NCBI GenBank assembly: GCA_951406725.2
Contig: OX597817.1
Coordinates: 133,424,001-133,488,000 of the forward strand
Length of the DNA: 64,000 nucleotides
Direction: 5' to 3'
DNA from: Octopus vulgaris
Taxonomy: Eukaryota
In this document: piece after piece, positions 1 through 41,672 of the stretch
How the letters are laid out: each line of letters opens with the position of its first letter
How positions within the stretch are numbered: position 1 is the first letter of the stretch
The notes under the pieces: model-generated
Seen by the model: only the letters and a program-made list of their open reading frames with translations
Databases searched by the model: none
What the model was told of the DNA's origin: nothing
Program-made: the position numbers and the translations under genes

Positions 1-898
1 TTCATTGATTTTCTTTTTTTAATGTTTCGAAATTGATATTTTGTTATTAAATATGCCAATAATTGAAAAAATAGTCTTCAAGATTAATGATAATTTTATC
101 TTCAGAATCTGAAACCAAATTTATATATTGACATTTTGCGATGATGTTTTTTTTAATGATTAAAAAAGTGAAATATGCTTTTTATAGCTGAACCAATAAC
201 TGCAAAACAAAACAAAAACAAAAGTTTTACTAATGAGTATTCGTATTTTAAGCTGAAGAATTAATTAAAGAATATATTTTTATTGAGCTCTAGCAAATCG
301 CAAAGAAGCTGACAACCAAATGACTGGATCCCCATCTTCATAAATATCTTTATTATTTTATCCCAATTTTCATTAAGTATAAAAACTTTTAGAGTTTAAT
401 TACTCTCTACTGATTTAAAATAATTTAACGTATATAATTTAATACGATATATTTGGACATGACTAGAAATAAATGAAAACTGACTGACATTAAAAGAGTT
501 GCACAACATTCATTTTGTTGGAATAATTCTGTTGAAATAATATTCTGCTCTTATTTTTAATTAATTTTGAAAATAATGGAGAGTGTAGTAAAGTAACTTT
601 ATCATTATCAATCTGGTGATTGGAATATAGATTTAACATGCAAGTTTGTTGGGAGATTTCTATGCAAATCTTATTACAACAATAAAATCCTTGGAAACAG
701 ATTTTGAACCAGACATGGTCATGGCCATGTGGTAATTATTTTTTTAATAATTATTCTTAAATGACATTATGGTGATTGAGATAAACGGTAATGATTGTGA
801 ATATTTCTTCTCCAGAGAGACTGTCATCTTTGACTGTTTCTTCTTCCTATACAAAATTCCTTTATTGGTTTGAAACAACAGTGAAAAAGACAAATTAC

Positions 899-925
899 CA
901 GGAAACAATGGTTTCCTGAGTTCAC
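899..925 (-). CDS. Candidate Shal micro-exon (9 aa)
   Basis: ccattttccctccag|VNSGNHCFL|gtaatt. 27 nt, phase 0-0; the donor is only moderate. Confidence 0.22.
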
Positions 926-1631
926 CTGGAGGGAAAATGGCAAGGAATTGCTGAGGGCAACAAATGTAAAAGATTTTCAAGTTTTGGGGAAAAGAAATGT
1001 TTGAGAATGGTAATTGCCGTTGTCTGCAAGATAGAAGTACTAAAAGATGAAGGTAAAAAGCACCCAATTCCTTGAGGTAGCTGTTCCAAAACTTAGCCTT
1101 GCTTCTTATTCCTCATCACCACCATTAGACAAAAAGTGAAGCTCAAAGCATTTTCCATTTATTTTCTTTTATCTTTCAAGCTCTAAATACTTTTTAGTTC
1201 ATTGGGACCTAAAAACGAAGAAATGTCAATATATTTACTGGGAAATATTGCAAAATTGAATAAGTAAATTTAGGTTGGCGGCAAATATCGGGGCCTGTAC
1301 TTAATCCTGCAGCTTGCGAAAATAGCAGTCAAATCTTCCTCAATTCATACCCCAGTGTCTTAAGAAGAACCGAAAGGAGACATCAGATAATGCAGCTCTT
1401 TATAGGAATGTGTGTGTGTGTTCTTTTTCAGGGATTAGAAAAATTGAAGGACTGCTGCAATAATTGTATGTACGTAAAATCATAATCAACTGATCCTCTT
1501 GTATTTTCTGTCCCCCCAAACCAGGAACTTTTCAGCATCCTCTCACATATATGGACACACACACACAAAAATTGATGTCTATCTATCGATTTCTCCATTT
1601 TCTTTTTGTATACATAAATGATAATAGCGGC

Positions 1632-1825
1632 GGTAAAGAATAGGACACCAGCCGTTTTCGGCGCAACAAAAACCCTAATCCTAACCCCAAACCCTAACCC
1701 TAATCCGAACCCTAATCCTCACCCGAATCCTAACCCTAAACCTAACACTAATCCTAACCCTAATCCTAATCCTAGCCCTAAACCCTAACCGCAACCCTAA
1801 ATACCAGGTGTACGTATTCTTTACC
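1632..1825. mobile_element. MITE-like element with internal degenerate (TAACCC)n repeats
   Basis: Terminal inverted repeats ggtaaagaatag.acacc / ggtgtacgtattctttacc flank a telomere-like array. A second copy is at 5890-5997. Confidence 0.75.
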
Positions 1826-2358
1826 CATTTGCGTCGATGAGAAGCTAACATCTTTTTAGTATTTCACTGGGAAAAAAAACGGGGTAACCCTCGCAATATA
1901 TTTGGGCAGACATCAGCGATAGGTGGCCCAAGCAAGTGGGAGTTTCTCCGTTTTGACGGGGATTTTTCAGATTTAGTTTTTTTTTTCGCTGTGTCCTTGG
2001 GGATGATCTGGAGCAGCATTTTAGGAAAATGGAAATTTTCGAAAAATCCCCCCCCCCTGCCTACCACCTCTCAAAAATTATAGGAGAAGCCTTTTCGGTA
2101 AAAAATAAAGAGAGTTTTGGCTGTTATTTCTAGCATATCACTATTTTCTTCTCATTAATAGAATAAACTTATATTATTTTAAAAAAATATTCTTGAAAAT
2201 TTATGGTTTTTACCAATCCTAAACCTACATGTGTCTTATGATAAGAGTATATGAGACAAGGAAGTGATAAACCATTTCTGATTTCCATGTGTTTATATTA
2301 TTAAATGTCTTGAAAATAAAAACATGTCTTTCCTTGCGTTATTATTACCTCCGCCTTA

Positions 2359-2758
2359 AGGCGGTGAGCTGGCAGAACCGTTAGCATGTCGGGCGAAATG
2401 CTTAGCGGTATTTCGTCTGCCGCTACGTTCTGAGTTCAAATTCGCTGAGGTTGACTTTGCCTTTCATTCTTTCAGGGTCGATTAAATTAAGTACTAGTTA
2501 CGCACTGGGGTCGATATAATCGACTTAATCCGTTTGTCTGTCCTTGTTTGTCCCCTCTGTGTTTAGCCCCTTGTGGGTAGTAAAGAAATAGGTATTTCGT
2601 CTGCCGCTACGTTCTGAGTTCAAATTCTGCCGAAGTCGACTTTGCCTTTCATCCGTTCGGGGTCGATAAATTAAGTACCAGTTGCGTACTAGGTTCGATC
2701 TAGTCGACTGGCCCTTCCCTTCCCAAAACTTCAGGCTTTGTGCCTAAAGTAGAAAAGA
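2359..2758 (+). mobile_element. tRNA-derived SINE with Nin/Deu-like domain (partially duplicated)
   Basis: Head gagctggcagaa...gagttcaaatt (A/B-box-like), followed by gactttgcctttcatcc.ttcggggtcgataaattaagtaccag. Related copies near 6300-6480 (-), 12335-12710, 14583-14760, 42045-42250 (-) and 49341-49555. Confidence 0.75.
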
Positions 2759-2769
2759 TTATGACGTCC

Positions 2770-3138
2770 TACTAAACGAAGGTGGAGGTATTGTTTTCAG
2801 TCGTGTTTGTTTGTCCGTGGATGAGATATCTCAAGGACCGCTGGATGGATTCGGATGAAACTTTCAGGGATGCTTGGCCTCGTGACTGCCAAGAACTGAT
2901 TAGATTTTGGGATCGATCCGATTCTGGACAACAATTCTGGATTATTTTTTCGATTTTTTTCTAATTTGTTTTTTAAACTTAATTTTTGATAGCGACCAGG
3001 TTCATTTTTAGTATTCTCGTTTATGAGAGCAGTCGAGTTTATTTCAGATATTCTCATTTCAAAAACCATCTCCAGCTAATCGTTGAGAGGACGTTGGTGT
3101 TGCCATGGCGGAGGCTTGCACTCTCTGGGTGCTCTTGT
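2770..3138 (+). mobile_element. Helentron/HINE-like non-autonomous element
   Basis: Ends ggcggaggcttgcactctctgggtgctcttgtt. Its 5' tacctccgcc arm is at about 2346, separated by the SINE. Closely similar to 12716-13096. Confidence 0.55.
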
Positions 3139-3974
3139 TATTATTATTTGCTGGCTTTCATTCGCCCTATATGATATCATTTGGACGAATAATTGTAGCT
3201 TTCTTTTCTTCTTGACTATTACTATATATAGTAATTATTAATTACCGAGATAATTTAATTAACGGTAACCCTCCCACTTAAACCTGTTTGGTTGAAATAT
3301 TTGCTTTCTTGGTTTCATTATAGAAATTCGAGCAGACGACATTGTTGTTTAGCCCAAGGTCAAGCTTAATAGGATCAAAGACATTTCAACAATGACTAGC
3401 AGCTCTTTTTCTTTCTTTTTTTATTTTTTATTAGGCATAGTATACTTTGGCTACATTATTTAAAATGCAATTTTTTTAAAGATTGTAAAGCATGTTTTGA
3501 ATGGATGTTTGGCTGCTACTTCTTGCAAATTGAGCGCTCACAAAGAAGAGCACGTCTGCTGTTGGCTGACAGTTATTAGCAGCCACAGCTCTTAATATTG
3601 ACCAATTTTGACAACTATTCTGTTTTTAATAAAAAGAAAAAGAACATTTCAAAAATATTTAGAAAAACTGTAATTCTTTCTGTTCATATATTTCTATTTT
3701 TAATGTGGAATTCAATATTGTTTGTAAATTTGTAGTTTGAAATAACATTGATGAAAAATATGGAAAAACAAATTAATTGCAAAAAAAAATAAACCTGAAA
3801 TTTTCATCTCTTAAATTTTAGTAATTCCAGTATTTTTATTACATGATTCAATCATATATTTTGCTATGTTACTATAAACCCACAAGTATTTATGTAAGAG
3901 TGGCAAATATGACAAGAATGTGTCGAACGTCTGAGAAATAGATTTTCAGGTTTTACACAGCCCTGTCTACTCAC

Positions 3975-4013
3975 TCCCGAAGGTAGAACAGAAGAATAAG
4001 TAATTCGACTAAG
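3975..4013 (-). CDS. Candidate Shal micro-exon (13 aa)
   Basis: ttttgtaattttctattctag|LSRITYSSVLPSG|gtgagt. 39 nt, phase 0-0, strong pyrimidine tract and donor. Confidence 0.42.
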
Positions 4014-4189
4014 CTAGAATAGAAAATTACAAAATACATAAGATATATATATATACATCAATATTAGCGGTTGGGAGGCAGTTGCCGGCAACCGTGGAGA
4101 ATGGCGACGTACAGTAAAAGAGGGAATACAAAAGAGTGACAGAGAGAGAGAGGAGAAATGGAAAGAAAGGAAGAGACGTAAACAAGAGA

Positions 4190-4380
4190 CTATGGCACTA
4201 CAACCAGCCAGGAACAGTCTTCGCTACATTTGCGGTACCTGCCAGAGGGAGTGTTTGTCCAGGATAGGACTACACAGCCACAGCAGGAAATGTATCAGGA
4301 CATGAAATATAAAAGCCGGACTAGACTACAAAAAAAACATGCGCAACTCCATTGTCTCCCGAGACAGAAAGGATGCCAAT
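4190..4380 (+). mobile_element. RTE-type LINE 3' end relic
   Basis: Translates YICGTCQRECLSRIGLHSHSRKC, matching the CxxC..SRIGLxSHxR motif at the C-terminus of RTE ORFs. Followed by a short UTR and a (TA)n tail. Confidence 0.65.
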
Positions 4381-5889
4381 ATATATATGTTAAGGGCATT
4401 TCTACATATTATAAGGGACTCTTAAAGTGAAAACTACCTTGATAAATATACAGTTTACCAACAGCGAGGGATTTACGTGTAGTAATGCCCTTAATATAAT
4501 AAATGTATTTAAAAGGGAATAAATTAATTACATATTTTGTATAAATTTTCCCCTTAACAGGCGCGAGCGACCTTGACATTACATACATGCATCTGTACGT
4601 GCATGCATGCACACAAACAGACACACAAACACACACACACAAAGACACGTACATACATTTGAGACTCAACTTTGCCTTTCATCCTTTTGAACTCGGTGAA
4701 TGAAATGCCAATTCAGAAAAGTGAATTGGCGGAACTGTAAAAAACGTTGGACCGGGTGCCTTGAGCTAATTGCTCCGGCTCCCTCTGATCCGAGTTCAAA
4801 TCCGGGTAGGGTTTACTTGAGGGCTAGACTTAATCTGTCACTCGGTTTAACACCACCATCTAGCAATTTGGATCCTTTAAGCGAAGTTCACTCTATTGCA
4901 GGTAATCGAGCCTGGCACCCAAATTTGAAGATACCTTCTTCCATTCTACCTGTCAGAGTCAAAGGAGCTGTAAAGTGACATGAGCACGGCCTGTTCACCT
5001 AAGAGAAAACCTGTTATTTCAGCTACCACTGGATTTAACATTCCTTTACACCCAGGAAAGTTATTGTCAGTGATAAGAATAAATCACGCTGCTAATGTAT
5101 TTGATATTTACTTAGTTCTTTTAACGTAAGTGCCTAAATAACGTAATTCCATAATTTCTAACTCCAGATAGAAAAAAAGGGTTGTATTTGAATTGTTTAA
5201 ACGCGTTATGTGGTGAAATGATTAATTCCGAATTTGGTTTATTATATTTTAAGTCTTCAGAACTCAAAACAGTTTTAAATTTGTGTAAAGATAAAGTACT
5301 AATCCGATCAACTGCCAGAAATAAACAAATGACTGCTTCATAAATATTCTTGATACTTTTAAATTGCAGAGAGTTGTCTCCCTTACATTCAAAGTGTTGG
5401 TTCTATATTTGACTCTGTGTTACTGTGAATGATTAATCAGGTTACAATAATTAAAATCTAGTAGATCAGGTCTTTTCCACCGCTGTTTCGTGTTTGCTGC
5501 ATGGACTGGGGCGAGTCAGAAAATACCACGATATTTAGAAAGCTTCAGTGTTAATGCACCACTCCCACACCGGTGCATATGTGCATTTCTTATCAACGTA
5601 ATACAGTGCACACTTCTCGGTAGACAGCTGACTAGGGAACTTCCTCGTTCATGTTAAATATGGTTTTATTCACACGTTAATGTCTCTATCTGCTCTCTGT
5701 TACTGTTCTATTGACTTTGTTTTGTTTTAAGTGTGGTGCAAGTTCTTTGGTAGCGTGTGTTATAGGGGCATATCGGATGGGTGTGTGTGTAATCATTAAA
5801 AAAAATTGAAAAAGGCCATTGGTGTGTATTAATACAAATACATTTAGCGTGACATTCATTGTGTTGGGAATCGAAAAGAACTGGACGGA

Positions 5890-5997
5890 GGTAAAAAATA
5901 CGTACCACCCATTTTCGGCGTAACAAAAACCCTAACCCTAACCCTATACCATGACCCCTAACCGTAACCCTAAACACCGGGTGTACATATTCTTTAC
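5890..5997. mobile_element. Second, shorter copy of the (TAACCC)n-containing MITE
   Basis: Same TIRs and the same ttttcggcg.aacaaaaacccta junction as 1632-1825. Confidence 0.75.
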
Positions 5998-8192
5998 TTT
6001 CGTCAAGAATCGATAATCGCTTGACTAAGCGGGGAATTAAACTATCAAATGCCTATTTAGAAAAAAATTTGTTATATAAACTTTTTCAAATTGTTCGATA
6101 CTTCGGTAATAAATAAAATGAATTTGCAAAATTTTAATTTGTGAGACAAGTGATTTATTGTAATAAATAAATAAATAAAGCGTGTAATTTATTCGAGAGA
6201 TTTAGTTGGCATTGTACACAGATCTTTCTGATGGGTTACTGGGTAGATTTGAATCTATTAGACTAAATGTTTTAATATTAGTTACAAATTTTGGCACAAA
6301 GCTAGCTATTTCGAGGGAGAGATAAGTCGATCATATCTATCCCAGTTATCAACTGGTACTTAATTTCTCGACCCGGAAACGATGAAAGACAAAGCCGATC
6401 TGGGTAGAATTTGAGCTGAGAACGTGAAGACGAACGAAATGCCGCTATGCTCGGCGCCGTAACGATTCTGCCAGCTCGCCACGTCAACATATATTCTAAT
6501 ATTAATGTATAATCATATATTCTAATTGAAGTCCACAAAACATTATTCTGATTCTACCAGTGGTAACATAATATGGAAGAATGAGCATCGCTTTCCTCAT
6601 GACTGAGCGTCGTGCGGGGGAGGGGGCTCAAGCACAACAACTACCCGACACCAAACAATTCACTCTCGTATTCTGAATGAACAGATCTCGAATTAGCCAG
6701 CCCTTATTACAGCTATGTTATTAATGATAGAGTGCTTTTTCGTTGGTATATCTAGCAGGTAGTTCCACAACAGAAAAGCCACTCCCGGATATGTCAAATT
6801 GTGGCCATTAAATTGCACGTCATTTTTGTTTAAAAATGAGGTTTGTTTCTCACTTAAAAATCACTTAAATTTCCAATTGAGATTTGTTTATCCAGTGAAA
6901 TTTAAATTTAAATTTTTTTATATTACAGAGCGAATGTAACTCAAATTACAGTGCAACATATTTATTTTATTTATTCATTTATGCATTTTTTGTAATTATG
7001 GTTGATAAAGGCAATGAACTACATATTTCAAGTTTCAAACTGTAGAATGTCTAAATTTTTGTAAAAATCGTTTAAAATAGGCTTCAATATAAAGGGACGT
7101 CAATATTAAAGACTTTTTCTAAGAGTAGTGTCCCTTGTTTGTTGAACGTAGTAATCGTCAATTTAACTAAACCTAAGGTAAAAGCGAAATTTATTTTGTG
7201 ATGCTCATGTTTTCACCGAACTGAGTTATGGTGCAGGGGGAATGGACTGGTTTCTATTGAAATTGAAACAGATTTCAAATTTCATCTTCGATGCTATTAG
7301 TAGAAGAGGCATGCTCAAAGTGCCATGCACGTGGTTGTGAGGAAAGCTTATTTCAGCTATAATCAATAAGACTCTATACGTCTAACATGCGTACAACACT
7401 ACAGGATATAGTAAATTGGATATACTGCTGGTACCTTTGATATTGATCTCAATTTTGAAGCAGATGTGAGAAAATGTTGTAAGGTAATCCAGCATACAAT
7501 AGCATATTGGCATCTATTGTATAACTGGTTTTATTTTATTCCTCTCATGGGATGACAGGTACAGCTGACGACAAACTTGCTCTTGAAAGTAGATGCTTAT
7601 GGGACCTGCATTATACAGTAGTTAATTTTCCTGAATAAAACAACTTTCGATTGTGGTCGTTGCCAGTGCAAGTAGCAGGTGAAAAACACCGTTTGAGCAT
7701 GGTCATTGCCAGAACCGCCTGACTGGCCCTCATGCTGGTAGCACGTAAAAGCACCCACTACGCTCTCGGAGTGGTTGGCGTTAGGAAGGGCATCTAGCTG
7801 TAGAAACTTTGCCTGATCAGATTGAGTCTGGTGCAGCCTTCTGGCTCACCAGTCCTCAGTCAAACCGTCCAACCCATGCCAGCATGGAAAGCGGATGATA
7901 ATGAATTAATTTTTAAAATATGCTAGAATTGTTTGCAAATTAACATGAACCTTGTACAAGATGTTAAGTAAAAGTAACGATCGTTGAAAATATCCTTATT
8001 TAATGAATACATGAGTAGCAGCTTATTGATAGATGTTGTTGATATTCATAAGGAATATAGCATGAGAAATATTGTAAATATCTTTGTTGGGATTTGGAAT
8101 ATGTTGAAATATAGCATAGATGTCTATGTTAGTATAGTGAGAAATATACAGTGCATATTTAGGCCACCAAGTCGGGAAATAGGGTCAGTTAA

Positions 8193-8398
8193 CCATTTTG
8201 ATACCAACTACCTGAGACCAGTTCTCTGAGAAAACTTCCATGTTTTAAAGTGGTCAAAATTAAAATCTTCCATCAAAATTTTATGATTTAAGCCTAATAA
8301 TGACAAAGTTTTGTTTTTTTTTACTAAAATCTTCATTATTTTCAAAACTAATTGAAGTGAGGGTAGTATATTTCTTTAAAAATATGGTTACAAAAGGG
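8193..8398. mobile_element. piggyBac-type MITE
   Basis: TTAA|ccattttgatacc ... ggttacaaaaggg|TTAA. A related copy in the opposite orientation is at about 58021-58237. Confidence 0.7.
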
Positions 8399-8984
8399 TT
8401 AAATCAACTTCAAGGCATTAAAGGATTTATTTTATAATCTCCTCAATGAATGATAGGTGAACTGAACTCTACTAAGCTGTGAAATGAAAACTTAATAGAT
8501 CTAAATATCACCCATCATGAAATCTGGTATCCTATTCTGTATGCCAGTTCATCAGGCTTCTGTTATAATATATTAAAGTATTGTAGATATATGATGTGTG
8601 TGTGTGTGTGTGTGTATTGAGTTTTGTTTATATTGAGCAATATATTCGTTTAAAAGCACAATATGAGAGAAAGTGGGTGGAAGGAAAGATTTTGCAAAGA
8701 GACATAATGAATATATATATACTTGTCTGAAACAGAATAACATTAGCGGAAACAACAACAATTTAGAGTTTTCAAAAATACTCAAACAGGAAGTGGATAA
8801 GGGAAATGCTGGAGTCATGTAATTTCTAGAAGCGAAGTGCTACAAGAACTTGGAATTAGTAATACTCTAAATATAGGATTGGTAAGCCAGGAACATTGAA
8901 GGAAAATTGACTGTTTCAACAGCATAAATTTGAATGAAGTGTCAGTGCCAAGGCTCTTACTGCAATCGTGTATGCTTTTCTCAC

Positions 8985-9104
8985 CGGTTTGTGTTCAGCA
9001 GGCTCTTCACTTGTATAGTTGTAATAGTTCCATGTTAAGACACGTTCTATTGACTGCATTTCTTGTTCCATACTTGATGGTAAGCGTGTAGTAGAATTCA
9101 ACCC
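8985..9104 (-). CDS. Candidate Shal alternative cassette exon B (40 aa), paralog of exon A
   Basis: attctttag|GLNSTTRLPSSMEQEMQSIERVLTWNYYNYTSEEPAEHKP|gtgaga. 120 nt, open in phase 0-0. Confidence 0.72.
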
Positions 9105-12100
9105 CTAAAGAATATAGCACACTAAGTAGACACATTGAAATCTTAAACTTATATTTAAAAAATATAGGATTAAGTGGGTGAAACTAATAGCAGATTGATA
9201 TCTTATAACCCTAGAGGGTACCTCAGTAATGTATAAAGGGGATAAATGTTTAGTAATCATTTATTTTTGGTAGTTCAAATTCAGCCATGTAATGATGGAA
9301 ATAATTCTCTCACTGTATATATTGAAATTTCATTGAAATGCAAAGGATTATGTGTTTAAATTGAAAACAACCCTAATTTCAGTTTGATGCAGTTGTTTCA
9401 AATATACTAGTTCTGAGTAAAAATGTTTGTGATGTAAAATGAATATGTTAAATATTTATATAACTAATTATGGAAAATGGAGAAGACTACAGTGGGGTGA
9501 GGGGTAATGAAAACAGAAAGTTGTAGTAAATATGAGAATAAAAACAATAGAATTAAAATTGAGATTGAATTTTTGGTTAGTTCAGAATATAAAAAAATCA
9601 TGGACATTATGATTTAAAAATGGTGTTTGGCAACAGTTTTTAAATATATAGGTTGAAAGAGTACTTCCATTTTAATGTACATAATGGTTATTTCCCTTGT
9701 GAGATAATGATAAGCAATGATGTCTCCTTTGATACCATTTCATTATTTTCTTTTAAACTCTCAGAGTGTGTGAATATAAATGTATGAATTTATTACTGTG
9801 TATACAGAGATACAAATGCATACACATGCATTTAAATGTAATTTTAGTTTTTGCTCTTCTGGCATGTGTATATGGGTCAGAATAGTTTATGTATGGCTCA
9901 TCTCCAGCTCTAATCTATTGGCATGAAACTTTCCAGCCCATTGTGGGTTTTACTTTCAAGTAAAGGATTTTTATGTTTGTGGTAAATACTATTGCTTACT
10001 TTAAGTATTTAATTTCTTTTTTTTTTCCCCCTACTCTGCCTCTTACAGTTATATAGCCAAATACCCTGACTAATGCCAACAATACACCAATTATAGATTG
10101 GAGAGTATAACTTCCGATTACTCAGTAATACACATTTTTGTGTTTTTATGTGTGTGCTTGTGTGTGTATGTATATATATCTATATGTATGTGTGTATGTT
10201 TATTCACAAAGCTAAGTCGTGTTTACCAGTATTGGCTATATGAAATCTTTACAGATGCATGAGCATAAGAATACGCATGCATATATCCCAATTAGTGACT
10301 TGTTTTCGATTGTTAAACATTTTTCTGTATATAATGTCTATAATTCCATTTCCTTTGATTTTAATGTAAAATAAATATTTCTCCTCAGGAAAAATTTCAT
10401 CTCATAGGGCAAAGAGAAATGAGATGATATTTACAGAACTGAAGTATCTAAAAGTTAATTTATTTTTGCTATTTTGCATTGTTGTTATTTTAGCAAGTAT
10501 AATATTAAAAAGAAATACATATTGTTTTTCTCATTTTATCCATTACTCGCATAATTTTGTTTGGTGTTCACAATCCGAATTTCTTAACTTGGAGTCTTTC
10601 AACATTTTGTAAGTTATTTATTCGTCTATTTACTTTCATTTGTACAAATTTTTCTGTTGGTATCTTCTGATAGTTTTTTTATACAGGTAATTCTGCCATA
10701 TTTCATAGTTATGTTGATAACCATAATCACCTATGATATGCATTTAACCAATTAAATAATGCATTCATTCAAAAATTATATGGTTCAAAATGTAATATAT
10801 GACCCCATTTTTAAAACCCCATTTGAAAGAAATTTCAAGGTTTTGTGGTTAGTTGACAAGTAAGAATGTGAGGTTCAATCATGAGATTAGTGAAAATGTG
10901 CTCAGGTAATACTGAAAATTATTTAACGTATGACTGAGTTAAAGTGAAAGAAGGAAGGTTTAACAAAGCTTTGCTCAAATTAAATTCAGTTTAACGATGT
11001 TGAGAAATGTATGTGCATTAAAGCAGAATATGAACAGTTGAAACTACACTACAGTGCAAATTCATATCAAACCAGCATGGAAATACACTAAACTAATGGT
11101 GACAGTATTGAAAAATTTTGCCTGTGTACAATGCCAAATTTTTTGAGGGAAATCTATTTGGGCATCAGTGAGAATAACACTGAAAGTATAGTGACAAATC
11201 AAATAATGTTAGGCATTTGGTCACGTGATCTTTAATTTCTGCTAACACACTATTATTGATATCAGTGACATTGATAATGTCAATCTTCAGTCTCTTTATA
11301 TAAATCCAAACATAAATTAAAATTAAAATGTTTTCAGCACTATTATTTGATATCCTAAAATGTCACCTCAGAAACAAACTACACGTTGGTAAACTGAAAT
11401 ATTCCTAAAGAAAAGAATACTGAATTTTTAATGTAAAAATTTCATTTTAGAAAATATTTTCTATTGTTCATTTGATATGTAATGTAGAGGAGCACTTTAT
11501 GGCTTTACTTTTTGCCTAGAATGTACTGTAAAAGACAGATGAACAAACTCTAATAGATGACATTCACCAGGTTGAGGATAAAGAAAATTGTTGGGGCACT
11601 GCAGTTTGACCTGTGTTGGACAACAGATTACTGTTGATATCTACATCCTCTGCAGGAGCCCATGGGTGGATGTGAAATTTGCTCTGCAAGCCAATAAAAT
11701 GCATCTCGGTTATAACACTGAGCTCAGTCTCACATAATATTGATTTACAGCTAAGAGAAACAAGCCAGAAATAGTTGAATGTTTCTTATCAAGAATATGG
11801 TTTAGTACTAGTGACAGGATAGGAGCCATCGATCTTTCAGATCCTAATGACTCAGCAGCCAGTTGTAACTCTAAGACTACTTGACATCTTTAGTGAAGAA
11901 TTTAAAGCAGAATATAATCCTTGACTTGAAATAAAATATAAATCTAATAATTATAATGATTTACTGACAACCTGTCAGTGTTGATTTTGGATTTTATATT
12001 TCTATGTTTAAATTCTAGTAAGTTTAACTCGGCTTTTAATCCATCCAGAGTTGATGAAATAAATACTTGTGATTTACTGGACGCAAGTGAACTAGCACTT

Positions 12101-12715
12101 GTTTTATTGTATTATAGAATAGTGAATGGATTCTGCATTGGTTTTTGACAGTTATTCCAATTGTTTGATCAACAGAATTACATATTCAATGAATTACAGT
12201 GTCTGCAGACTAATATTTCACAGGCTTATATACCCTTAATGTATTCTTAAGGCAGAATCATCATGCAGTGTGACAAAGATGTCTCATGTATGTAAATCAC
12301 TACCTTATTATTATTATTATTATTATTATTATGGTCGTGAGCTGGCAGAATTGTTAGCATGCCCAGCAAAATGCTTTGAGTCATTATGTTCTGAATTCAA
12401 ATTCAGCTGAGATTGACATTATAGATCAGCTTCCTCCTCGAAATTTCAAGCCTTGTACCTTGAGTGAGAAAGATTATTATTGCTGTTGTTATCGTTTTTA
12501 AGGTGGTAAACTAGCAAAATTATTAACATATCGGATAAAATGTTTAGCAGCATTTCTTCCACCTATTTACTTTCTGAGTTCATATCCCACTGAGGTCAAA
12601 TTTGCCTTTCATCCTTTTACAATTGATAAAATACTAGTCAAGTACTGGGGTTGATGTAAATAACTTATACCATCCACCTAAAATTGCTGGCCTTGTGCCA
12701 AAATTTGAAACCATT

Positions 12716-13096
12716 ATTACCTTCGCCTTAGCGAAGGCGGATGTATTGTTTTCAGTCATGTTTGTTTGTTTGTCCATGAATATGATATCTCAAGAACCGC
12801 TGGATGGATTTGGATGAAACTTTCGAGGATGTTTGGCCTCGTGACTGGCACAAACTGATTAGATTTTGGGATTGATCTGGTACCAGACAAGGATTCTGGA
12901 TTATTTTTATTTTTCTGGTTTTTTTTTTTTTTACTTAAATTTTGACAGCAATCAGGTTCACTTTTAGTATTTATGTTTGTGAGAGCAGTCAAGTTTATTT
13001 CAGATATTCTCATTTTAAAAATCATCTCTGGCTAATTGTTGAGAGGATGTTGGTGTTGCCCCTGGCGGAGGTTTGCGCTCTCTGAATGCTCTTGTT
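12716..13096 (+). mobile_element. Helentron/HINE-like non-autonomous element
   Basis: 5' hairpin ccttcgccttagcgaagg, 3' subterminal ggcggaggt plus short stem-loop, inserted in a TT/ATT context. Second copy at 2770-3138. Confidence 0.55.
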
Positions 13097-13534
13097 ATTA
13101 TTATTATTGGAAGAGTCATTATAGTTTTGGACAAATGTTTTCACTCTATTACTAATAGCATGTTAAACATGTGCTGGTGCATGGTCTTATGGTTAAGTTA
13201 TTGGGCTTTCAATCATAATGTTTTGGGTGGCATGTTTTGACCATGAGCAAGGCACTTCATTTCACATTCTTCCAATCTATTCAACTGAACATGAGCACCA
13301 GACAAGTGCTGGTGTAGATTTCTCTCCCCTTCTAGCTGTCACATCCAGAATGTGCCACTGGATGAAAGGGTATGAGAAGAGGGTGTCTGTGTTTGCTTGT
13401 GACTACATAGGTATCTGAAATAATCAACAAAGCGAACCTGTCATGGGGTCCTGTTTTCGATCATGTTTGGATGGTGATAATGATTGTACATGTAGCCAAG
13501 CATACTTATTTGTTGGTGATGGCCGGCTCTTTAA

Positions 13535-13945
13535 TATATTTCACTTGTTTCAGTCATTAGACTGCGGCCATGCTGGGGCACTATCTTGATGAATTTTAGT
13601 CAAATGAATCAACCCCTATATTTTTTTTATCCTTTTAAAATCTGGTACTTCTTCAATTGATTTTTTTTGCCTTACAGCTAAGTTTTGGAAATGTAAACAC
13701 ACCAGCACCAATTGTTAAGTGATGGCAGAGGGCAAACACAAACAGAAAGACACATACACACACACACGTGTATATATATATGTAGATGACAGGCTTCTTT
13801 CAGTTTCCGTCTAACAAATCCACTCATCAGTCTTTGGTTGGCCCAAGGTTATAGTAGAAGACACTTGCCCAATGTGCCATGCAGTAGGATTGAAGCCAGA
13901 ACCATGTGGTTGTGAAGCAAACTTCTTACCACACTGCCCCACTCC
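13535..13945 (-). mobile_element. tRNA-derived SINE, same family as 29331-29785
   Basis: Reverse-complement similarity along its length to 29331-29785. Confidence 0.7.
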
Positions 13946-15694
13946 TGTTAGTAGTATTTATCATACTTCATGGTGTTTAATGTCCACTTTTGATTTGAAG
14001 AAATGATTTCTTGCAAAATACAAATGTCAAAGATATTAGAAATAATGGTCTAAAATTTTATAGCAACTCTTAAAAGGATTGATGTCACCACAAAGTAAGA
14101 AAATTATCTTGTATCCATGTATAGTGCATAGGGCAGTTTATAAAACCAATTATTAATATCAAAAAGTCTGCATTATATGTCATCAAATACAGTAATTATA
14201 TTTCAGGGTTGTCTCACTTTCATTTGTAAAATAAAATTCTCATCATTAAATGTGTAATTCTAATTGAAATTTCTTGGCTTACTGCATCAAGTAAGTTAGT
14301 AACCTTCTTATAATTTGTCTTTCATGCAGCCAGCATCCCAAGATATTTCCCCCCAATCATTCTTTTAAGATACAATGCCAATCTGTGATGATTAACAATA
14401 AAAAAAAAATAATAATTTCAAATTCTCTTGTAATCTAAGATCTGCAGTAATTAGGCAATGTCTTGCTGGGGAATTCTCATAAGACTGAAACACAACTAGA
14501 GTTATCATTGTCTGTTGAAGACCAGACTCACTCTCCACTGCATTCCATATCTAATTAATGTTAATATTAATTTCAGGGTTAAGGTGGCGAGCTGGCTGAA
14601 TAGTTAGCACTCTGGACCAAGTGCTTTGTGGCATCTCATCTGTTTTACATTCTGAGTTCAAATTTCATAGGGTCAACTTGCTTTTTTCATCCTTCTGGAG
14701 GTCAATAAAATAGGTACCAGTTATACATTGGGTTTGATGTAATCAACTTAGTCTCTTCTTCAAACCAGCTGACATCATCAACATCATCATCGTTTAACGT
14801 CTGTTTTCCATGCTGGCAGTTTGACTGGGGACTGGCAAGCCAGACGGCTGCACCAGGCCCCACTCTGATCTGGCAATGTTTGTACAGCTTCGTAATGCCA
14901 ACTACTCTGAGAGTGTATTGGGTGCTTTTTATGTGCCACTGGCATGTGAACCAGTCTGGCAGCACTGGCATTGGCCATGTTCAGATGGTGCTTTTTACAT
15001 GCTACTGGCAAGGGGAGCCAGTCAGGTGGCACTGGCAACGACCCACACATGAATGGTACTTATTGCATGCCACCAGCATGGGAGCCAGTCAAGCAGCACT
15101 GGCATCTGCCACAATTACAATTTCCATCTGATTGTGATTTCATTTGATTTGATTCAAATCAAAATCAAATGGACCTTGTGCCAAAATTTGAAACCGATAT
15201 TAATTTCACAGTTGTCTTCTCTTTTTGACTAAATTAAGTAATTTATTTAGGTAATAATTGCTCTCTTGATTAAGGTATAATTTTAATTAAAATATCTTGG
15301 TTTACTACATGAAACATTCTAGTGCTCTCTTTACTTCTGAGTCTCCATCCAGCAGGCATGCCTTGGTAGTTTTTAAAAGTCTTTCTAGTTACTCTAAAAA
15401 CTTTCAACCATTCATTCTCTCTATCTATCACTTACACCACTATTACTAATCATAATTTAGTTATGTCAGTGAAAATATTCTATTGATAAATTTATTGATC
15501 CTAAGTTTTTTCATTAGTTTATTCATAAAAAATTAAGGTGTGTACTTATACATCTTTATGACATATGATTTTTAAATGGTTAAAATTTACAAATAACAAA
15601 ATTTGAAAAGAACTTTAGTAAATAGTCAATTATTATAAACTGACACAATGGCAATGAAGATGTTAGTGATAATCATCACACACATGCACACGTA

Positions 15695-15748
<54 letters not shown>

Positions 15749-15751
<3 letters not shown>

Positions 15752-16519
15752 GGTGTTCTGAGTGTTTATGAGTAAACTTTAGTAGGCTGTAAATGAAAGA
15801 CGACTTAGCATAATTTTTGTTTTGTGTTATGTAGCAAATTTTTATTTTTTCATTTAATTTTTTGCATTGATACACCTGGGTGTATCAATAGCATCAGTAT
15901 GCCAAATTCCAGTCTTATATAGTTGAAAAAGTTATATTGTGTTTGTGACTTTAGTTGGGGATTGCCACCTTCTTGAACATAGCTGGATTCTTTGAGTTAA
16001 TGGTCAGGAAAAAGCTTGAGGCCTCATGCCATCTGTGACCAAGAGAAAGAAACCTATTCAGTGGTCAGATGTCAAGATGGTTGAGTTTATCCAGCATGTG
16101 CAGAACATCATCAACAACTATACCAGCATATCAATGCAAACTATTGCAAAGCAGATATGTGGTGTGTGAGGATGTCTTACATGACGACAAGTGGGCAGTT
16201 CATGTCCAGCAAAACTCTGGAGATCTGTGTGATAAGTTATCTCTTAGCACTCATGATTTGACTACTGGACTGTTATATCTGTGGTATTATTGAGTAAGGG
16301 AACCAGCCAGGAGTGGCATGGGGAGAGGTGAGCTATCCTGGCATAGTCATTTCAATCACTGCATCAAAGCTGTCATAAGGACTGAGGTTGGTTTTGTTGA
16401 TTGGTCACTTTCTTTGTGTATCTAGTTGAAAATGTATGCTGTTTTTCTAGGAGAATGTTGGTTTGTTTTTGTTTCTCCTTTTGTTTTGTTTAGTTTCCAG
16501 TTACCTAGCACACCCTGTA
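15749..16519. mobile_element. Degenerate Tc1/mariner-like element
   Basis: Ends ctgggtgttc... and ...gcacaccctgTA, with decayed coding-like interior. Confidence 0.4.
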
Positions 16520-16814
16520 TATATAAAGAGAGAGAGCATGTGTGTGTGTGAGTGAGTACATACAAATGCTAGTATTTCGTCTGTAATTATCTTGAGGTAA
16601 AATTGCTTTCTCTGTATTCGTACTTGAAAAGCATTATATGCCAGTTGGGATGGATTGTTTAAGTATTAAATATTCATTGCATTATTGATATAGTGCTGTA
16701 GTCATGTTTAAATAGAGGGTTTTTTTTTCTCCTTTCTATCATATATTTTCTATTTTCATTTCATTTATTTGTTTATTGGTTTTCAACTGTAGCTATTTGC
16801 ATAAGATAACTCAC

Positions 16815-16880
16815 CTGGAATATAGCCATTTGGAAATGATTAGAAATGGTAAAATCATCTGAACCCCTGGTGGAGAAACC
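16815..16880 (-). CDS. Candidate Shal cassette exon (22 aa)
   Basis: tcaattcag|GFSTRGSDDFTISNHFQMAIFQ|gtgagt. 66 nt, phase 0-0, consensus CAG|GTGAGT donor. Confidence 0.5.
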
Positions 16881-17878
16881 CTGAATTGATAGACAAGTAC
16901 ATCAAGGAACACAGTGAAGAGAGATAAGGGCTTACAACTGCTTGTCAACTCTAAATTTTCAAACTGAATTAAATCCAAATATAATCTAAAGCTTTTAGAA
17001 ACAGAAAGTAAATAATCTCATAATCTTTGAGGATTAAAAAAAAACAATTAATTTTAATTATTTGGCTGATTGCATTTTTTGCTTTTTATTCTATTATTTT
17101 ATTTTCATTCTATAGATTTGAAATGAAATATAGTTACATTCTTTTAAACGGAAGTTTCTTAAATACGTAATTTAACCTTTCTCATTGATTAAACATTGAT
17201 GTAGTCCCATTTGTAAGTGTGTACTCAAGTGCTTGTATGTGTTTGTGTGTGGGAGAGAGAGAGAGAGAGGAAAGAGATATAGAGAGAGGCAGGGGATTTT
17301 TGTTTGTGCAATTACATTAAATTCTTGAAGATTAAACTTGGTTTGAATGGAGAATATCTGTATATGATCAGTGTGCATTCAAATACAAAGGATATGAGAG
17401 ATAATTAAGAGTACTGAGTACTCTCTTTTAATTCTCTTTCATATATTCTTTGTATTTGTGTTCTAACTGATTTTATAAAGTAGTCTTTGGTTACACTAGC
17501 TGCTCCACTTCAGTAATAGACACACACACACACGTGTGTGTTAATATTTGCACATACGTGTTTCTGTATTCATATGTATTCAAGGGAACTGGTATAGCAA
17601 TGCCTTATTAAATACGAAGGTTGGGGGTTAATGTAATTGTGGTGAAATAGTATCATTGACCGGCAAAGACTATAATGAGAGGCAGCATATATTGTTTGGT
17701 GTGGAGTGCAAGTATCGAAGAAGCGAGGAGGCTGATGTGTGTAGTGAACAGAATGTGGAGAGACAAATTTAAAGAGCAGAGCTTGTTACATTAAAAAAAT
17801 CAGAAGTAATACAGTTTGAAAGGAAGGCAGGGATAGAATATTCTCAGTAATAGATAATCTTCTGAATTCAGTTCTAGA

Positions 17879-18315
17879 TACATTATTTACTTTTGATGGA
17901 TATTTGTCCTCATCTTGTTTGTTGTTAACACATTTTGACTGATATACCCCACAGCCTTCATCAGGTGTCTTGGGGAAATTTTGAACCTGGGTTCTCATTC
18001 CTAAGGTATTTTTCAATTTTATTATTATTATTCAGGTCACTGCTTGGAATCGAACTTGGAATCTTGGGGTTAGTAGCCCGGGCATATGGCTTAGTGGCTA
18101 AGAGCGCAGGCTACTAACCCCAAGATTCCGAGTTCGATTCCAAGCAGTGACCTGAATAATAATAATAATAACATCGAAAAAATACCTTAGGAATGAGAAT
18201 CCAGGTTCAAAATTTCTCCAAGACACCTGATGAAGGCCGGAGGGTATATCAGCCGAAATGTTGTGTTAACAACAAACAAGATGAGGACAAATATCCATCA
18301 AATGTAAATAATGTA
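17879..18315. repeat. About 200-bp-arm inverted repeat of a tRNA-headed element carrying a hammerhead-like motif
   Basis: 17879-18080 is the reverse complement of about 18109-18315. The right copy has A box tggcttagtgg, B box gagttcgattcc and CTGATGA..GAAA. Confidence 0.85.
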
Positions 18316-18706
18316 CATAATTCCTCATCTCTTAAATATAAAACTCTATTATCAGTCCTAGATGTCTGAAGTTAAAAGAGATGATCATTCACATCTATGA
18401 TAAGAGCATTTCATATTGAAGTATATTTGAGCTATGTTGTGAGCTGACACAGTTACTTGAAGCAAGAACATTTTCTCATATTCTGATGAGAAAGCTATGA
18501 CTCCTGAATGTAATTTTTTCTGAAAATTAGTATTTCAAAAGATGGCGATGGTCGTTCTAGCACAGTTGGGATAGAGTTGTTGTATGTCAAACAGAATATA
18601 TGTTAACTTATGTGACATAAACAGAGATTTTACACTTGCATCATGGTTTTGATTAGTCAGCCCATTCATTGGTTAATGGTTGTATGTCTGTAGGCTGATA
18701 AGGAAT

Positions 18707-18730
18707 TGTGTGTGTGTGTGTGTGTAAATG

Positions 18731-18819
<89 letters not shown>

Positions 18820-19000
18820 CTCTACTAACTTCCAACATAATGTTGTATTGAGTTCTTTTATGTTTTTGTACCACAAAATAAAATATATGTGTATGCATAT
18901 ATATTATATTTACATATACACACATATTTATATGTACATATATGTATGTACATACATGCACATGTATATACATATACACACAGACACACACACCTGCACA
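18707..19000. repeat. (TG)n/(TA)n/(CA)n microsatellite cluster, representative of many in the window
   Basis: Visible directly; source of the YIYI/HTHT ORFs. Others at 15680-15750, 23364-23402, 29492-29580 and 51562-51720. Confidence 0.95.
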
Positions 19001-20574
19001 CCCACATAAAGTGCATGTGTTTGTGTTGTACAAGATGTGGGGACTGATGCATATCTTATTAAAAAAGACAGTTTTGCACTATTTTTAGACATTTTATATT
19101 TAGTTTCCTATATTCTGTTGTGAGTTCTTAAACTTATTGCTTTGTGTTTTCTATTAGTATATTTCTAAGTTTATATTGATGTTTTGAGGCATTGTGAATT
19201 TATTATCAATGTATATACATATAAGAACATGGCATATGTACTTATCTGTCACAACCATCCACCAGTATATTTATAAATGGTCAGGAGCTCATTGTACATT
19301 GAATTATGTATATATTTTTTTAAACATATTTGTTGTTTTTATAGATTGAATAAGAGATAACTAGAGCATGCAGCATGAACTTTACAATAAATATTTCTTT
19401 CATTGATCTCTTATTCAAATACATGCATATACGCTACACATGCACACACATACACAACATACACACACATGCACACACACATGCACACAATCATACACAC
19501 ACTCTTGTGTATATAAATGAAGTTTATGTTTTACATTTATTTGTTTGTTAAGCTTTTATATATTCTTTTGTAGACGTTTATCTTCCATATCAGAGTGTCA
19601 GGCTCCAAGATTTATCTCTTCACATCAATACTCTTCTTCTCCGTGTGGTTAATGTCCTAGACATTAGGGTCATATTTCAATACGGCTTTGTAACGAAGTG
19701 TATGCATTGTCTCAGCGAGCATGATGCAAATAATAGCTTAACATAAAGTATGGCCTATAGCTGATGTCCACTTCATATGTAGCACACCTGTCCAGTTGAT
19801 GGCCAATGACAAATAAAGATGTGCCTAAGCAACACCTTCATTTTGAGGGTTTCCATAGTTAGAATTTATTCACTCATGGCCAGGCCAAGAACTGATTGCA
19901 GCTAGTCATCTCTTGTACTTGCGGAAATTATTAAAAATAACATTAGTCATTCAGCTATTGTCCTTTTTCCTCCTCACTGCATAATTAGAATGTATGTTAG
20001 CAACAGAGGATGGTCAAAGTGCAAGCTTGGCTTCATAGTTCAGAAGTTCACTTCCCAATTATGTGGTTTCAGATTCTATCACACTGGGAAACACATTGTG
20101 CAAGTGTTTGCTTCTAAAGAACCCAGCTGCCTTAGGCTTTGTGAAAGGATATGGAAAGTGGAAACTTAAAGAAGCCTATCGTACATCTGTGTGTGAGGAT
20201 ATGTTTGTGCTTCCTGGTCCTGACATTACACGATACTTGTAAACAAGTGTCACCATCATACAAAGACATCAAAACAGTCCTTCATTAGCAATCTTCTTTG
20301 AAGCATATCCAATCTTGAGGAAGTATTATGTTGCTTGAAAACTGATAAAGGTTCGCAACAAAAAGGATATCTGACTGTAGAAAATCTACAACAAATTCCA
20401 TGTGACCCATGCATTGGAAAATGGATCTTTTGGATCTTCAATATATATCTGTCTATTTGTCTGTCTGTTCGTCTATCTGTCTGTCCATCCATATGTATGC
20501 ATATATATATCTATAGGTATATATTATGAAGTTGGAGCGTTAAGCAGTGACATGCATAAATGCAATGTTATTAC

Positions 20575-21156
20575 CAGTTCAAATATGCTTGTGGCATGTT
20601 TGGACTGATAAACAAGCCATTCATTAAGATTTGTTATGGAGAAAATGTCTTGCTGTTGACAATGGTGTAAATACATGTAGATCAGTTTGCAGCATCCCCT
20701 TTCCAGACTGTGAGATGCAGTATTTCAGAGTAGTTATCTCCTCTTCAGTCGCAGACACTGGGCAGATGGTGTGGCACACTAATGAGAGTGATTCTCTTAT
20801 ACTATTTCATTCATTGTACATTGACTGATAACACTACACAGCAGCTCACCATAAGTAAATTACAAAGTAGCAGCAATAAGCAGTAATATGTAGTGCTGTC
20901 AGTCATCGTACAATGACTGAAATAGTATCAGAGAATAACTCTCTTTCATCAGTTCGCATCACCCTTTGTGCAGTGTCTGTGACTGAAGAGGAGATAACTA
21001 CTCCAAAATGTTGCATCTAACAGTCTGGAAAGTGGCTACTGCAAACTGATCTACGTGTATTTACACCATTGTCAACAGCGAGAAAGTTTCTCCATGACAA
21101 AACACAGTGACTGGCTTGTTTATCAGTCCAGACATTCCACAAGCATATTTCAACTG
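20575..21156. repeat. About 265-bp-arm inverted repeat (fold-back), each arm carrying a hammerhead motif
   Basis: cagttcaaatatgcttgtggcatgtttggactgataaacaagcca pairs with tggcttgtttatcagtccagacattccacaagcatatttcaactg. Pairing continues inward to a loop of about 50 nt. Confidence 0.9.
20708..20754 (-). ncRNA. Minimal type I hammerhead ribozyme motif (Penelope/retrozyme type)
   Basis: CUGCGA-CUGAAGA-GGAG(auaacua)CUCU-GAAA-U(acugc)A-UC-UCACAG: core boxes, helix II, 1-bp helix III and helix I with one mismatch. Confidence 0.65.
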
Positions 21157-21157
21157 A

Positions 21158-21201
<44 letters not shown>

Positions 21202-21928
21202 TGTAAGTGTAAGTATGGTTGAATAGCTAAACAAGTTTACTTCAGAACCACATGCATGGCACCTTGAGCAAGCATCTTCTACCATAGCTTCAGGCTAACC
21301 AATACTTTGTAAGTTAAATTTGATAAATAGAAAATGAATGAAAGTGTATTGTATTTATGTGTGTGTTTGTGTCAGAGAGAGAGAGAGAGAGAGAGTTTCT
21401 AGGTGTCTATACATTGTCATTGACATTTTTATGTCTCATAGCTCAATAGTTTTCATTGTTGTTGAAGACCAGTACAAGAAAAAATATCTGCCTTGAAAAA
21501 CAAAGGAAAGATAGTATCAAACCTCAGTATCTCTCTTCCAAACCGTGCCAGTATGGAAAAAGGAGACATAGAAATGATGAGGATAACATAGTTCATGTGT
21601 GTGTATGCGTGAATGTAAATCTATGATGTATGTATGCATGCATATTTATGTGTGTATATACATACACACATACACACACAAGTAATATATATATATGTGT
21701 GTATATACATATATACAAATATATATATAATTCGTATGCATAGCAAAGGGCTGTATGTATGATTTCATGTTTCTTTTCCATGTGGCTTTTTTCCAATGAT
21801 CATTTATGCTCTCAGACAAAGCAAGTTTCTATAGGTTGATGTAATTAAAACTTCATTGTGCAGTAGTTTGTGTCTCTATGTTGGATAACTAAAACTGGAG
21901 ATTATCTAGGGTGCCACTTTACTCTCAC

Positions 21929-22045
21929 CGTTTTTTCTTCCTCAACCGAGCTTTCTGCAGGATAAGAGTACACCTGCCAGTCCAATACAGCTTCTGGACC
22001 TAATATTTGTTTTCCAAACTCTTCTGGCAGCACCATATTTAAACC
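21929..22045 (-). CDS. Candidate Shal alternative cassette exon A (39 aa)
   Basis: tgctgtag|GLNMVLPEEFGKQILGPEAVLDWQVYSYPAESSVEEEKT|gtgaga. 117 nt, open in phase 0-0, with sequence similarity to the exon at 8985-9104. Confidence 0.72.
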
Positions 22046-23182
22046 CTACAGCATGATACAACAATAATATATGCACATTTAAAAGACAAAATGAAAATGA
22101 TTTTGCATTAAACATTAAAGACACATCAAAGGATATATGATTATAAAATTTGTGTATCCCCCATGGGTTCATATATCTATTCAGTACAGGTATAAGTTTA
22201 TACATGTAGACTCTGTCACCTAGTCCATATTTATATTTTGTGGCATAGTAACCATATGGCTAAGCAATTAAAGGTAAAATCTACATTTGCTCACTCTGAT
22301 TTTTAGACTCAATAAAAGAGAATTAAAATTTGAAAAAAAACTGAAGGAAGTATTCTGCATGATGAATAGAAGTGGTAGCAAGAAAATTTACACTTATATT
22401 TAGCTTTTCTCTGAAATTGTGAATTAAAATCACAACTTCAAGATATTCTCACCTGTTTGTAAACACTGTCATAAATTAGTGTTTCTATCATATTCTTGGG
22501 AGATGTCTTTTAACTGAACTGAACTATAGGCTCGTGGGTAAGAGTTTAAAATCTACCACAGGTATCAATGTAATTTGTAGATATGAAGCCTATGATTTCT
22601 AAAGTGATGGAAAATGACCATGCATCTGATTATGAAAGCATAGTTACAGAATTGCATTACTAAGGATCATTTTCTTCTTTAAAGTACATGCCTATAATTT
22701 TACTGGAAGTGTCCATCTACTCTTGAATAGACCATGTGATATTTTTTGATCTTCTGTTTTCTCTTCCCTTAATGTTTACAGAAGGAAATGTACTTTATCA
22801 TGGTACTTATATATAGTTAATTAGATTTGACTTCTGAAATTTAAGCGTCTTTACTGGGAATCATAATGCACCAGCCACCACTCAGCCAGTAGGTTAACAC
22901 CATTACATCTTAAACATCTGTTGCTTTTTTTCATTTTATATTTGTTTATTTGGAATTATGATTACATTTAACCACGTTTAAGCATTAACATCTTCAGACA
23001 TTTTATCTAATTAAATATATAGTGGTGAAAGAGAAAACAAATAAGTGAGATACTGATGTATGAAATAACATAGTACAAATAGTTCAACATGTTCTTGAAT
23101 TCTTACCAGAACAATAAATGTGTACCAGCTGTCACTTTTGAAAATAACAAAATATAGAATTTGCACTAGACAAGATTCTCAC

Positions 23183-23230
23183 CCAAATTGTGAATCCTTC
23201 TATTTGAAGTGTTGACATACTACCTGTGTG
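23183..23230 (-). CDS. Candidate Shal micro-exon (16 aa)
   Basis: Branch-point-like tactaat, then attccttaatag|HTGSMSTLQIEGFTIW|gtgaga. 48 nt, phase 0-0. Confidence 0.3.
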
Positions 23231-23361
23231 CTATTAAGGAATATTCATTAGTAAAACATTGAAAAAAAAAAAAATTCAAATGATTCTGTAAGACAATTGG
23301 TATGCTTTGGAAATGATATGATATCATAGGAGACCATTAAAAAATGTACTTGTTAAAATAT

Positions 23362-23404
<43 letters not shown>

Positions 23405-23709
23405 TTGTTGCATGGTAGAGGCAGAATTGATTATCTTTTATGAATTAAAATATTTCCTTATTTTTGCTTCTACAGCTTTGCTTCTGTACTGCAAATATTC
23501 ATTTAAGTTTTGCAGTAATTCAGGGCTATTTTACCCCTTTTACATAGTCTCTATCAAGCTTCACTAGTTACCTTCTATTATGAAACTGCTCATCATAAAT
23601 TTTCAAACTGTATAATCAATCATGTCCTACAATGTATGTGTGTGTGTGTTTGTGTGTGAATAAATATGAAATTAAATGGCACAATATTTAAATACATGAT
23701 GGTACTTAC

Positions 23710-23892
23710 AGTAGTTTTTTCTAGACAGGTTAAGAGATGATGATGCTGTAACTCGAATATGTCTTCTTTGTAGTCATCTACTTCAAGACCACTTTCTCTA
23801 GCAAGTACGACCTCCTCAGTTCGTTTCTTGCTAGTGATAAAGGCTGCGCCGCTCGCGTTTTTAGCCATGCGGATACGAGCCAATCGTGCTTT
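23710..23892 (-). CDS. Shal: Shal/Kv4 exon: proximal C-terminus with di-leucine targeting motif
   Basis: aatttcag|KARLARIRMAKNASGAAFITSKKRTEEVVLARESGLEVDDYKEDIFELQHHHLLTCLEKTT|gtaagt. 183 nt, phase 0-0, in frame with the 41510 exon. Confidence 0.97.
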
Positions 23893-41509: not shown

Positions 41510-41672
41510 CTTTTGTGCCTTGCGTTTGTCTGCTCTTTGGTTCTGATGATAAATACGACTAAAGTTTGAAACAATTACAGGCACTGGTAATGCAATAACC
41601 AATACACCACTCAGGGAACACACACCACCAACTATTTTACCAGTTATTGTGTTTGGTACCATATCACCATAT
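41510..41672 (-). CDS. Shal: Shal/Kv4 potassium channel internal exon: end of selectivity filter, S6, start of C-terminus
   Basis: Translates (G)[54 protein letters not shown], a Kv4-specific sequence. Boundaries are ttttgtag|A TAT GGT (phase 2, splitting the first Gly of GYG) and AAG|gtaaat. Length is 163 nt. Confidence 0.98.

Follow-up and report, generated by a model that had tools for sequence, protein, structure and literature searches.

The 64,000-nucleotide stretch of Octopus vulgaris DNA analyzed here (contig OX597817.1, positions 133,424,001 to 133,488,000; hereafter the window) contains the 3' half of the Kv4/Shal channel gene, which lies on the minus strand. Within the intron that follows the exon ending in the residues CLEKTT, our analysis distinguishes three short segments, A, C, and B. 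With moderate confidence, we read them as likely cassette exons that are skipped by default and whose inclusion is predicted to alter the tuning of Kv4 by KChIP proteins. A and B are real, open, bounded by AG and GT, and similar to each other beyond chance. We are close to certain that the segments are exons, and regard the origin of A and B by duplication as highly probable.

An earlier note on this DNA had described A and B as paralogous phase 0-0 exons, and their coordinates, translations, phase, AG acceptors, and CG|GTGAGA donors were all as it claimed. Exon A, a likely cassette, comprises 117 nt encoding 39 aa (window 21929..22045, minus strand); its paralogue B, 12.8 kb away, comprises 120 nt encoding 40 aa (8985..9104, minus strand). 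We counted 14 identities between their translations, matching the reported figure of about 14; the alignment has a two-residue gap near the start, a one-residue gap near the end, and none in the core, which runs from LP to the E that follows the second Y. The global alignment score of 49 was reached by none of 20,000 shuffles (shuffle maximum 24). The intron offers 191 open phase 0-0 candidates of 90–150 nt bounded by AG and GT; B was the best partner of A among them, and the best unrelated candidate scored 8. When all candidates were compared with one another, 20 of 17,332 pairs scored at least 49, and the top 12 listed were microsatellites; after low-complexity filtering (151 of the 191 candidates kept, 10,823 pairs), the only pairs scoring at least 30 were A/B and one pair of dispersed repeats. 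Homology, shared phase, and location in the same gene support the old exon duplication proposed in that note. At the 14 identical residues, A and B use different codons in six cases and the same codon in eight, in keeping with the codon differences it reported. Nucleotide identity by codon position was 16, 23, and 16 of 38, a comparison that is partly circular because the alignment is protein-based. The reported likeness of the two acceptor regions fared less well: it was nominally significant (p ~0.007), but 20 comparisons were made, and correcting for them leaves it weak. A and B each had one match in their own genome (the search tool warns that a single match is no proof of rarity), and no further copies were found in the window, in the 120 kb beyond it, or in the genome. 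A Pfam scan found no real family for either exon, and an ESM Atlas search returned no usable match.

This locus also holds a look-alike pair of open, AG/GT-bounded "paralogous exons" with a score of 55, which are two dispersed-repeat copies in a very high-copy region (window ~14800-14925 and ~2.3 kb before the window start). Such pairs are a trap for observations of paralogous exons.

Exon C, overlooked in the earlier note and located through the O. sinensis protein model XP_036358514.1, lies between A and B (16815..16880, minus strand; 66 nt, 22 aa, phase 0-0, CAG|GTGAGT donor) and is likewise a likely cassette. We rejected it as a third paralogue, given that 4601 and 4442 of 5000 shuffles scored as well against A and B, respectively. 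By an ad hoc splice-site score of our own, C, A, and B ranked 1, 2, and 3 among 791 open phase 0-0 candidates of 30–240 nt in the intron, and all three combine canonical splice sites and an open frame with preservation of the reading frame, as coding cassettes do. Two shorter forms of A also appear in this ranking: an internal CAG acceptor at window position 21973 (minus strand) would give an in-frame 45-nt form without the Trp (rank 13 of 791), and an internal donor would give a 72-nt form (rank 8 of 791).

Comparison with relatives points to constraint on the encoded peptides. Two Logan open reading frames (ORFs), P0184 in A and P0185 in B, each begin within the exon and continue past its donor. 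Relative to the window, none of the 36 exon residues in P0184 and none of the 25 in P0185 are changed (0 of 61 pooled), compared with 2 of 8 and 7 of 22 residues in the intron read-through (9 of 30 pooled; Fisher p=1.8e-5). In both ORFs, amino-acid constraint ends at the donor site, bearing out for A and B the protein-level selection that had been supposed. Searching 1.84 billion proteins with a profile yielded six matches, namely P0184, P0185, P0186, and three unrelated sequences (two CRISPR-like read-throughs and a microbial protein rich in repeats). P0186 is identical to A at 24 of 36 residues, retains L-P and E-x-V-L-x-W-x-x-Y-x-Y as well as the late E and K, and continues into Val-Ser at the donor position; its single match in the O. 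vulgaris genome is A. It is probably a distant orthologue of A that keeps the frame, the motif, and the donor position. The open frame and the peptide are thus kept in P0184, P0185, and P0186. These constraint results cover A and B, and what is known of the conservation of C comes from the O. sinensis model alone.

The identity of the host gene is well supported. Its exons match Kv4 proteins of O. sinensis, O. bimaculoides, and O. vulgaris at 98–100%. Those in the window include a constitutive exon for the end of the pore and S6 (41510..41672, minus strand; Pfam Ion_trans, 100% match to Octopus Kv4 proteins) and the exon ending in the HHHLL...CLEKTT helix with a phase-0 donor (23710..23892, minus strand; PF11879 above cut-off, Kv4.2/4.3 alignment). 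By homology, this helix is the putative dendritic-targeting and KChIP-binding helix. The one PF11601 match, the Shal N-terminus, lies ~345 kb upstream on the same strand (G000:C4:133832846-133832926), and the Shal N-terminus, S6, and the PF11879 C-terminal helix are combined in one gene, which identifies it as Kv4/Shal. The host intron is 26.8 kb long (1..23709 within the window, minus strand) and extends past the window start to a 159-nt exon, here called the DREF exon (G000:C4:133420796-133420954, ~3.05 kb before window base 1); the last Kv4 exon lies ~71 kb beyond the window start. In the O. vulgaris prediction P0121, the usual ...KISTL end is replaced by an extra C-terminal extension at G000:C4 ~79.8 kb before the window start, possibly an alternative last exon or an artefact. 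Near-identical cephalopod Kv4 variants of 589 aa (P0004-P0010, P0123-P0136) differ by single residues, such as Thr/Ala in the tail, and may reflect RNA recoding or alleles.

Both inclusion and skipping are represented among protein models. In RefSeq, A, B, and C are already annotated: the O. sinensis model XP_036358514.1 (P0001) reads CLEKTT-A-C-B-DREF, with the three exons 100% identical and bounded at the same positions. It was the only protein with either the A or the B peptide among 17 candidates (71–2000 aa). Of 25 CLEKTT-bearing proteins of cephalopod type, 23 pass directly from CLEKTT to DREF, one carries A, C, and B, and one reads through into the intron; skipping is therefore likely the default form. 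The 23 skipping proteins, 19 recognized by sequence tag and four (P0007-P0010) by 97% identity, include two Octopus models, and 20 of them are near-identical variants resembling a Sepia protein. The skipping form thus exists among cephalopod-type proteins, as documented by protein models rather than by RNA of O. vulgaris.

The position of the insertion site suggests how inclusion could act. By alignment, the CLEKTT junction corresponds to T489|N490 of Kv4.2 and T487|N488 of Kv4.3. The helix plus loop of Kv4.2 (S472-D495) fits into a crevice that KChIP1 forms with the neighbouring N-terminus, its S473-T489 corresponds to the Shal dendritic-targeting motif, and H491A/F493A/V494A abolishes the speeding of recovery by KChIP1 (PMC8566240). 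The 19-residue insert of Kv4.3L (residues 488-506 of KCND3) leaves the lone channel unchanged, while augmentation by KChIP2b is up to 8-fold lower and inactivation 40% slower (PMC5296356); KChIPs are also mentioned for invertebrates (PMC3973911). Aligned to Kv4.2, the octopus junction cuts the KChIP1-bound segment between its helix (S473-T489) and its loop (490-495), and the DREF exon retains the F493 equivalent. Inclusion would shift the DREF loop 22–101 residues from the helix, with the start of a new exon taking its place, and a loop so displaced or replaced would be expected to alter KChIP-dependent recovery and current. The phmmer alignment places Met-Val of A at F493/V494, positions that are polar in B and C; KChIP-dependent recovery and surface current are therefore predicted to vary from one isoform to another. 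On balance, we lean slightly toward KChIP tuning as the main role of A, B, and C. The DREF exon is itself skipped in Kv4 isoforms of abalone, mussel, oyster-like, and Pomacea proteins (P0015-P0018, P0025-P0030, P0034, P0036, P0037, P0060); with it, the F493-equivalent KChIP loop would be lost as well, and such skipping represents another splice switch here, one that is shared more widely.

Several observations weigh against reading the segments as default-skipped cassettes that tune KChIP action. The single model with all three exons is a pipeline prediction, and it appears flawed elsewhere because its N-terminus is placed at 43502-43606, whereas the true N-terminal exon is ~345 kb away; a chained model could also merge A-C and C-B junctions from separate molecules. 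The 20 Sepia-like skipping proteins are not independent because they are near-identical, and they may derive from species without the exons. Because the exon peptides served as the query for retrieving the ORFs of relatives, conserved matches were favored. No inclusion junction was seen directly in contigs from sequencing runs, and one X1 contig (8886-9130), taken by guess to be RNA, crosses B unspliced, from pre-mRNA or DNA. As to the model, its first 35 residues map to intronic sequence (window 43502-43606, minus strand) at 91% identity, and the model is probably a truncated one whose start is spurious; with this artefactual-looking N-terminus and supporting evidence that is not visible, we treat it as suggestive only. 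The run contigs over 8600-18600 (X1, X9, X10, and X18 of 24 runs) are dominated by dispersed repeats, and there was no B or C joint among the 15 joints listed (1725 further joints were unlisted, and A lies outside 8600-18600). An X18 contig covers 8601-9477 with 20 differing letters and 16 gap letters. Among the 20 sequence holders listed, none is RNA on record and 14 are RNA by guess.

The missing junctions, together with the absence of the segments from 23 of 25 cephalopod-type proteins, might suggest decayed or rarely used pseudo-exons without a protein role. We consider this very improbable, since the amino-acid constraint stops at the donor site, the distant orthologue P0186 keeps frame, motif, and donor, and the segments have the best splice sites in the intron. 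Strictly mutually exclusive use of A and B, which the earlier note had raised as a possibility, is also improbable. The two are homologous, nearly equal in length, and of the same phase, and a chained gene model need not equal single molecules. Ion channels are overrepresented among genes with duplicated exclusive exons, and most tandem duplicates of exons become constitutive (PMC8373072). Against exclusivity stand the tandem arrangement of A, C, and B in XP_036358514.1, the common form with all three skipped, and the unrelated exon C between the two. Nor did we find any of the classical exclusion devices: steric, frame or nonsense-mediated decay, and U2/U12 blocks were absent (introns of 1664, 5048, 7710, and 12030 nt; exon lengths of 117, 66, and 120; all GT-AG), and a docking-site scan of 14 flank pairs (400 nt, 12 shuffles each) gave three strong duplexes, all (TG)n/(CA)n microsatellites. 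With no exclusion mechanism found, the label "mutually exclusive" is unsupported; we judge it reasonably likely that A and B are not strictly exclusive, and A, C, and B are probably usable alone or together. Downstream of the CLEKTT exon lies a stretch of (TG)n (window ~23364-23402) that can pair with CA runs located after A, after B, and before C, and this pairing is probably due to chance because microsatellites are common in the region.

A different role is conceivable, in which the exons mainly add a trafficking or scaffold-binding W/Y motif beside the dendritic-targeting helix, with zero to two copies setting avidity and KChIP effects secondary. Residues common to A, B, and P0186 fall mostly within the downstream V-L-x-W-x-x-Y-x-Y motif and not at the beginning of the exon, suggesting that the exons also serve to bind a partner. 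The motif outlasted both duplication and speciation, and the adjoining helix corresponds to the Shal dendritic-targeting motif (PMC8566240). In our preferred reading, too, this acidic repeat would supply a short binding motif, once or twice per isoform. It matched none of the LIR, YxxPhi, di-leucine, RVxF, LxVP, and W-acidic patterns. The W-acidic motif of kinesin light chain has an acidic residue right after L-x-W, as in the SKIP example (PMC6214655), and was rejected, the W being followed by Q, N, and Q in A, B, and P0186. Apart from generic CK2/PKC sites, a scan with motif patterns gave nothing but a single TRLP, present in B and missing from A. The profile search of the 1.84 billion proteins found no relative outside this gene, and no partner was identified; we regard the motif as unlikely to be the main function. 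The locus could be a combinatorial switch within the KChIP clamp of Kv4, made of three stackable cephalopod exons and yielding up to eight isoforms that swap the KChIP-binding loop and add zero to two copies of a previously undescribed W-x-x-Y-x-Y motif, an independent and enlarged reinvention of the vertebrate Kv4.3L switch. This proposal, which also holds that different exons arose in this intron in several animal lineages, is tentative and somewhat doubtful.

Kv4 together with KChIP sets A-current recovery and dendritic excitability. If A, B, and C are regulated, they would offer a splicing route to A-current diversity in octopus neurons, and the three exons provide natural variants for probing the 490-495 loop in the KChIP clamp. 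The conserved W/Y motif is a lead toward a new Kv4 partner. The exons' presence in RefSeq and the occurrence of optional inserts at this Kv4 site were already known. Alternate splicing of lobster shal was reportedly proposed as a source of A-current diversity (Baro et al. 2001, known to us by its title as cited in PMC3840709).

Our data can be set against several known systems. XP_036358514.1 contains the same A, C, and B, but gives no paralogy, splicing pattern, or function. The literature we searched held no description of these exons; supplements, such as the exon tables of an octopus-mentioning preprint (bioRxiv 10.64898/2026.09.05.749416), fell outside its scope. Like Dscam1-type exclusive exons (PMC8373072), A and B are internal exons that are homologous and alike in length and phase; unlike them, they lack a detectable exclusion mechanism, and protein models with neither and with both are on record.

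The closest parallel is Kv4.3L. As the earlier note had stated, the vertebrate insert follows CLEKTT directly, at the same position as the octopus segments (Kv4.3 alignment; PMC5296356), and we likewise found no match of A or B to another known Kv4 insert. In both systems, the inserts are in-frame and optional and split the KChIP-bound segment. A and B share a starting Gly-Leu with Kv4.3L and no further likeness by eye (unscored), and the single 19-residue vertebrate insert contrasts with two or three octopus exons of 22–40 aa that include an internal duplication and a W/Y motif. We therefore rejected orthology with the Kv4.3L exon, which shares the position without sequence homology, other molluscs and an annelid having unrelated inserts or none; the octopus exons are likely lineage-specific and convergent with Kv4.3L, of independent origin, although they would be expected to act in a similar way. 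Inserts at the same junction occur in Mytilus (14 aa; P0159/P0161), Pomacea (25 aa; P0170/P0171), and Owenia (23 aa; P0057), none of them resembling A, B, or C in sequence (every p 0.08 or higher); those in P0064 and P0106 look like annotation artefacts and were set aside. Together with Kv4.3L, these unrelated inserts suggest repeated independent exon gain at one structural hinge. Such gain would be a clear case of what a preprint on neural exons calls "type I convergence" (bioRxiv 10.64898/2026.09.05.749416), although Kv4 does not appear in its main text.

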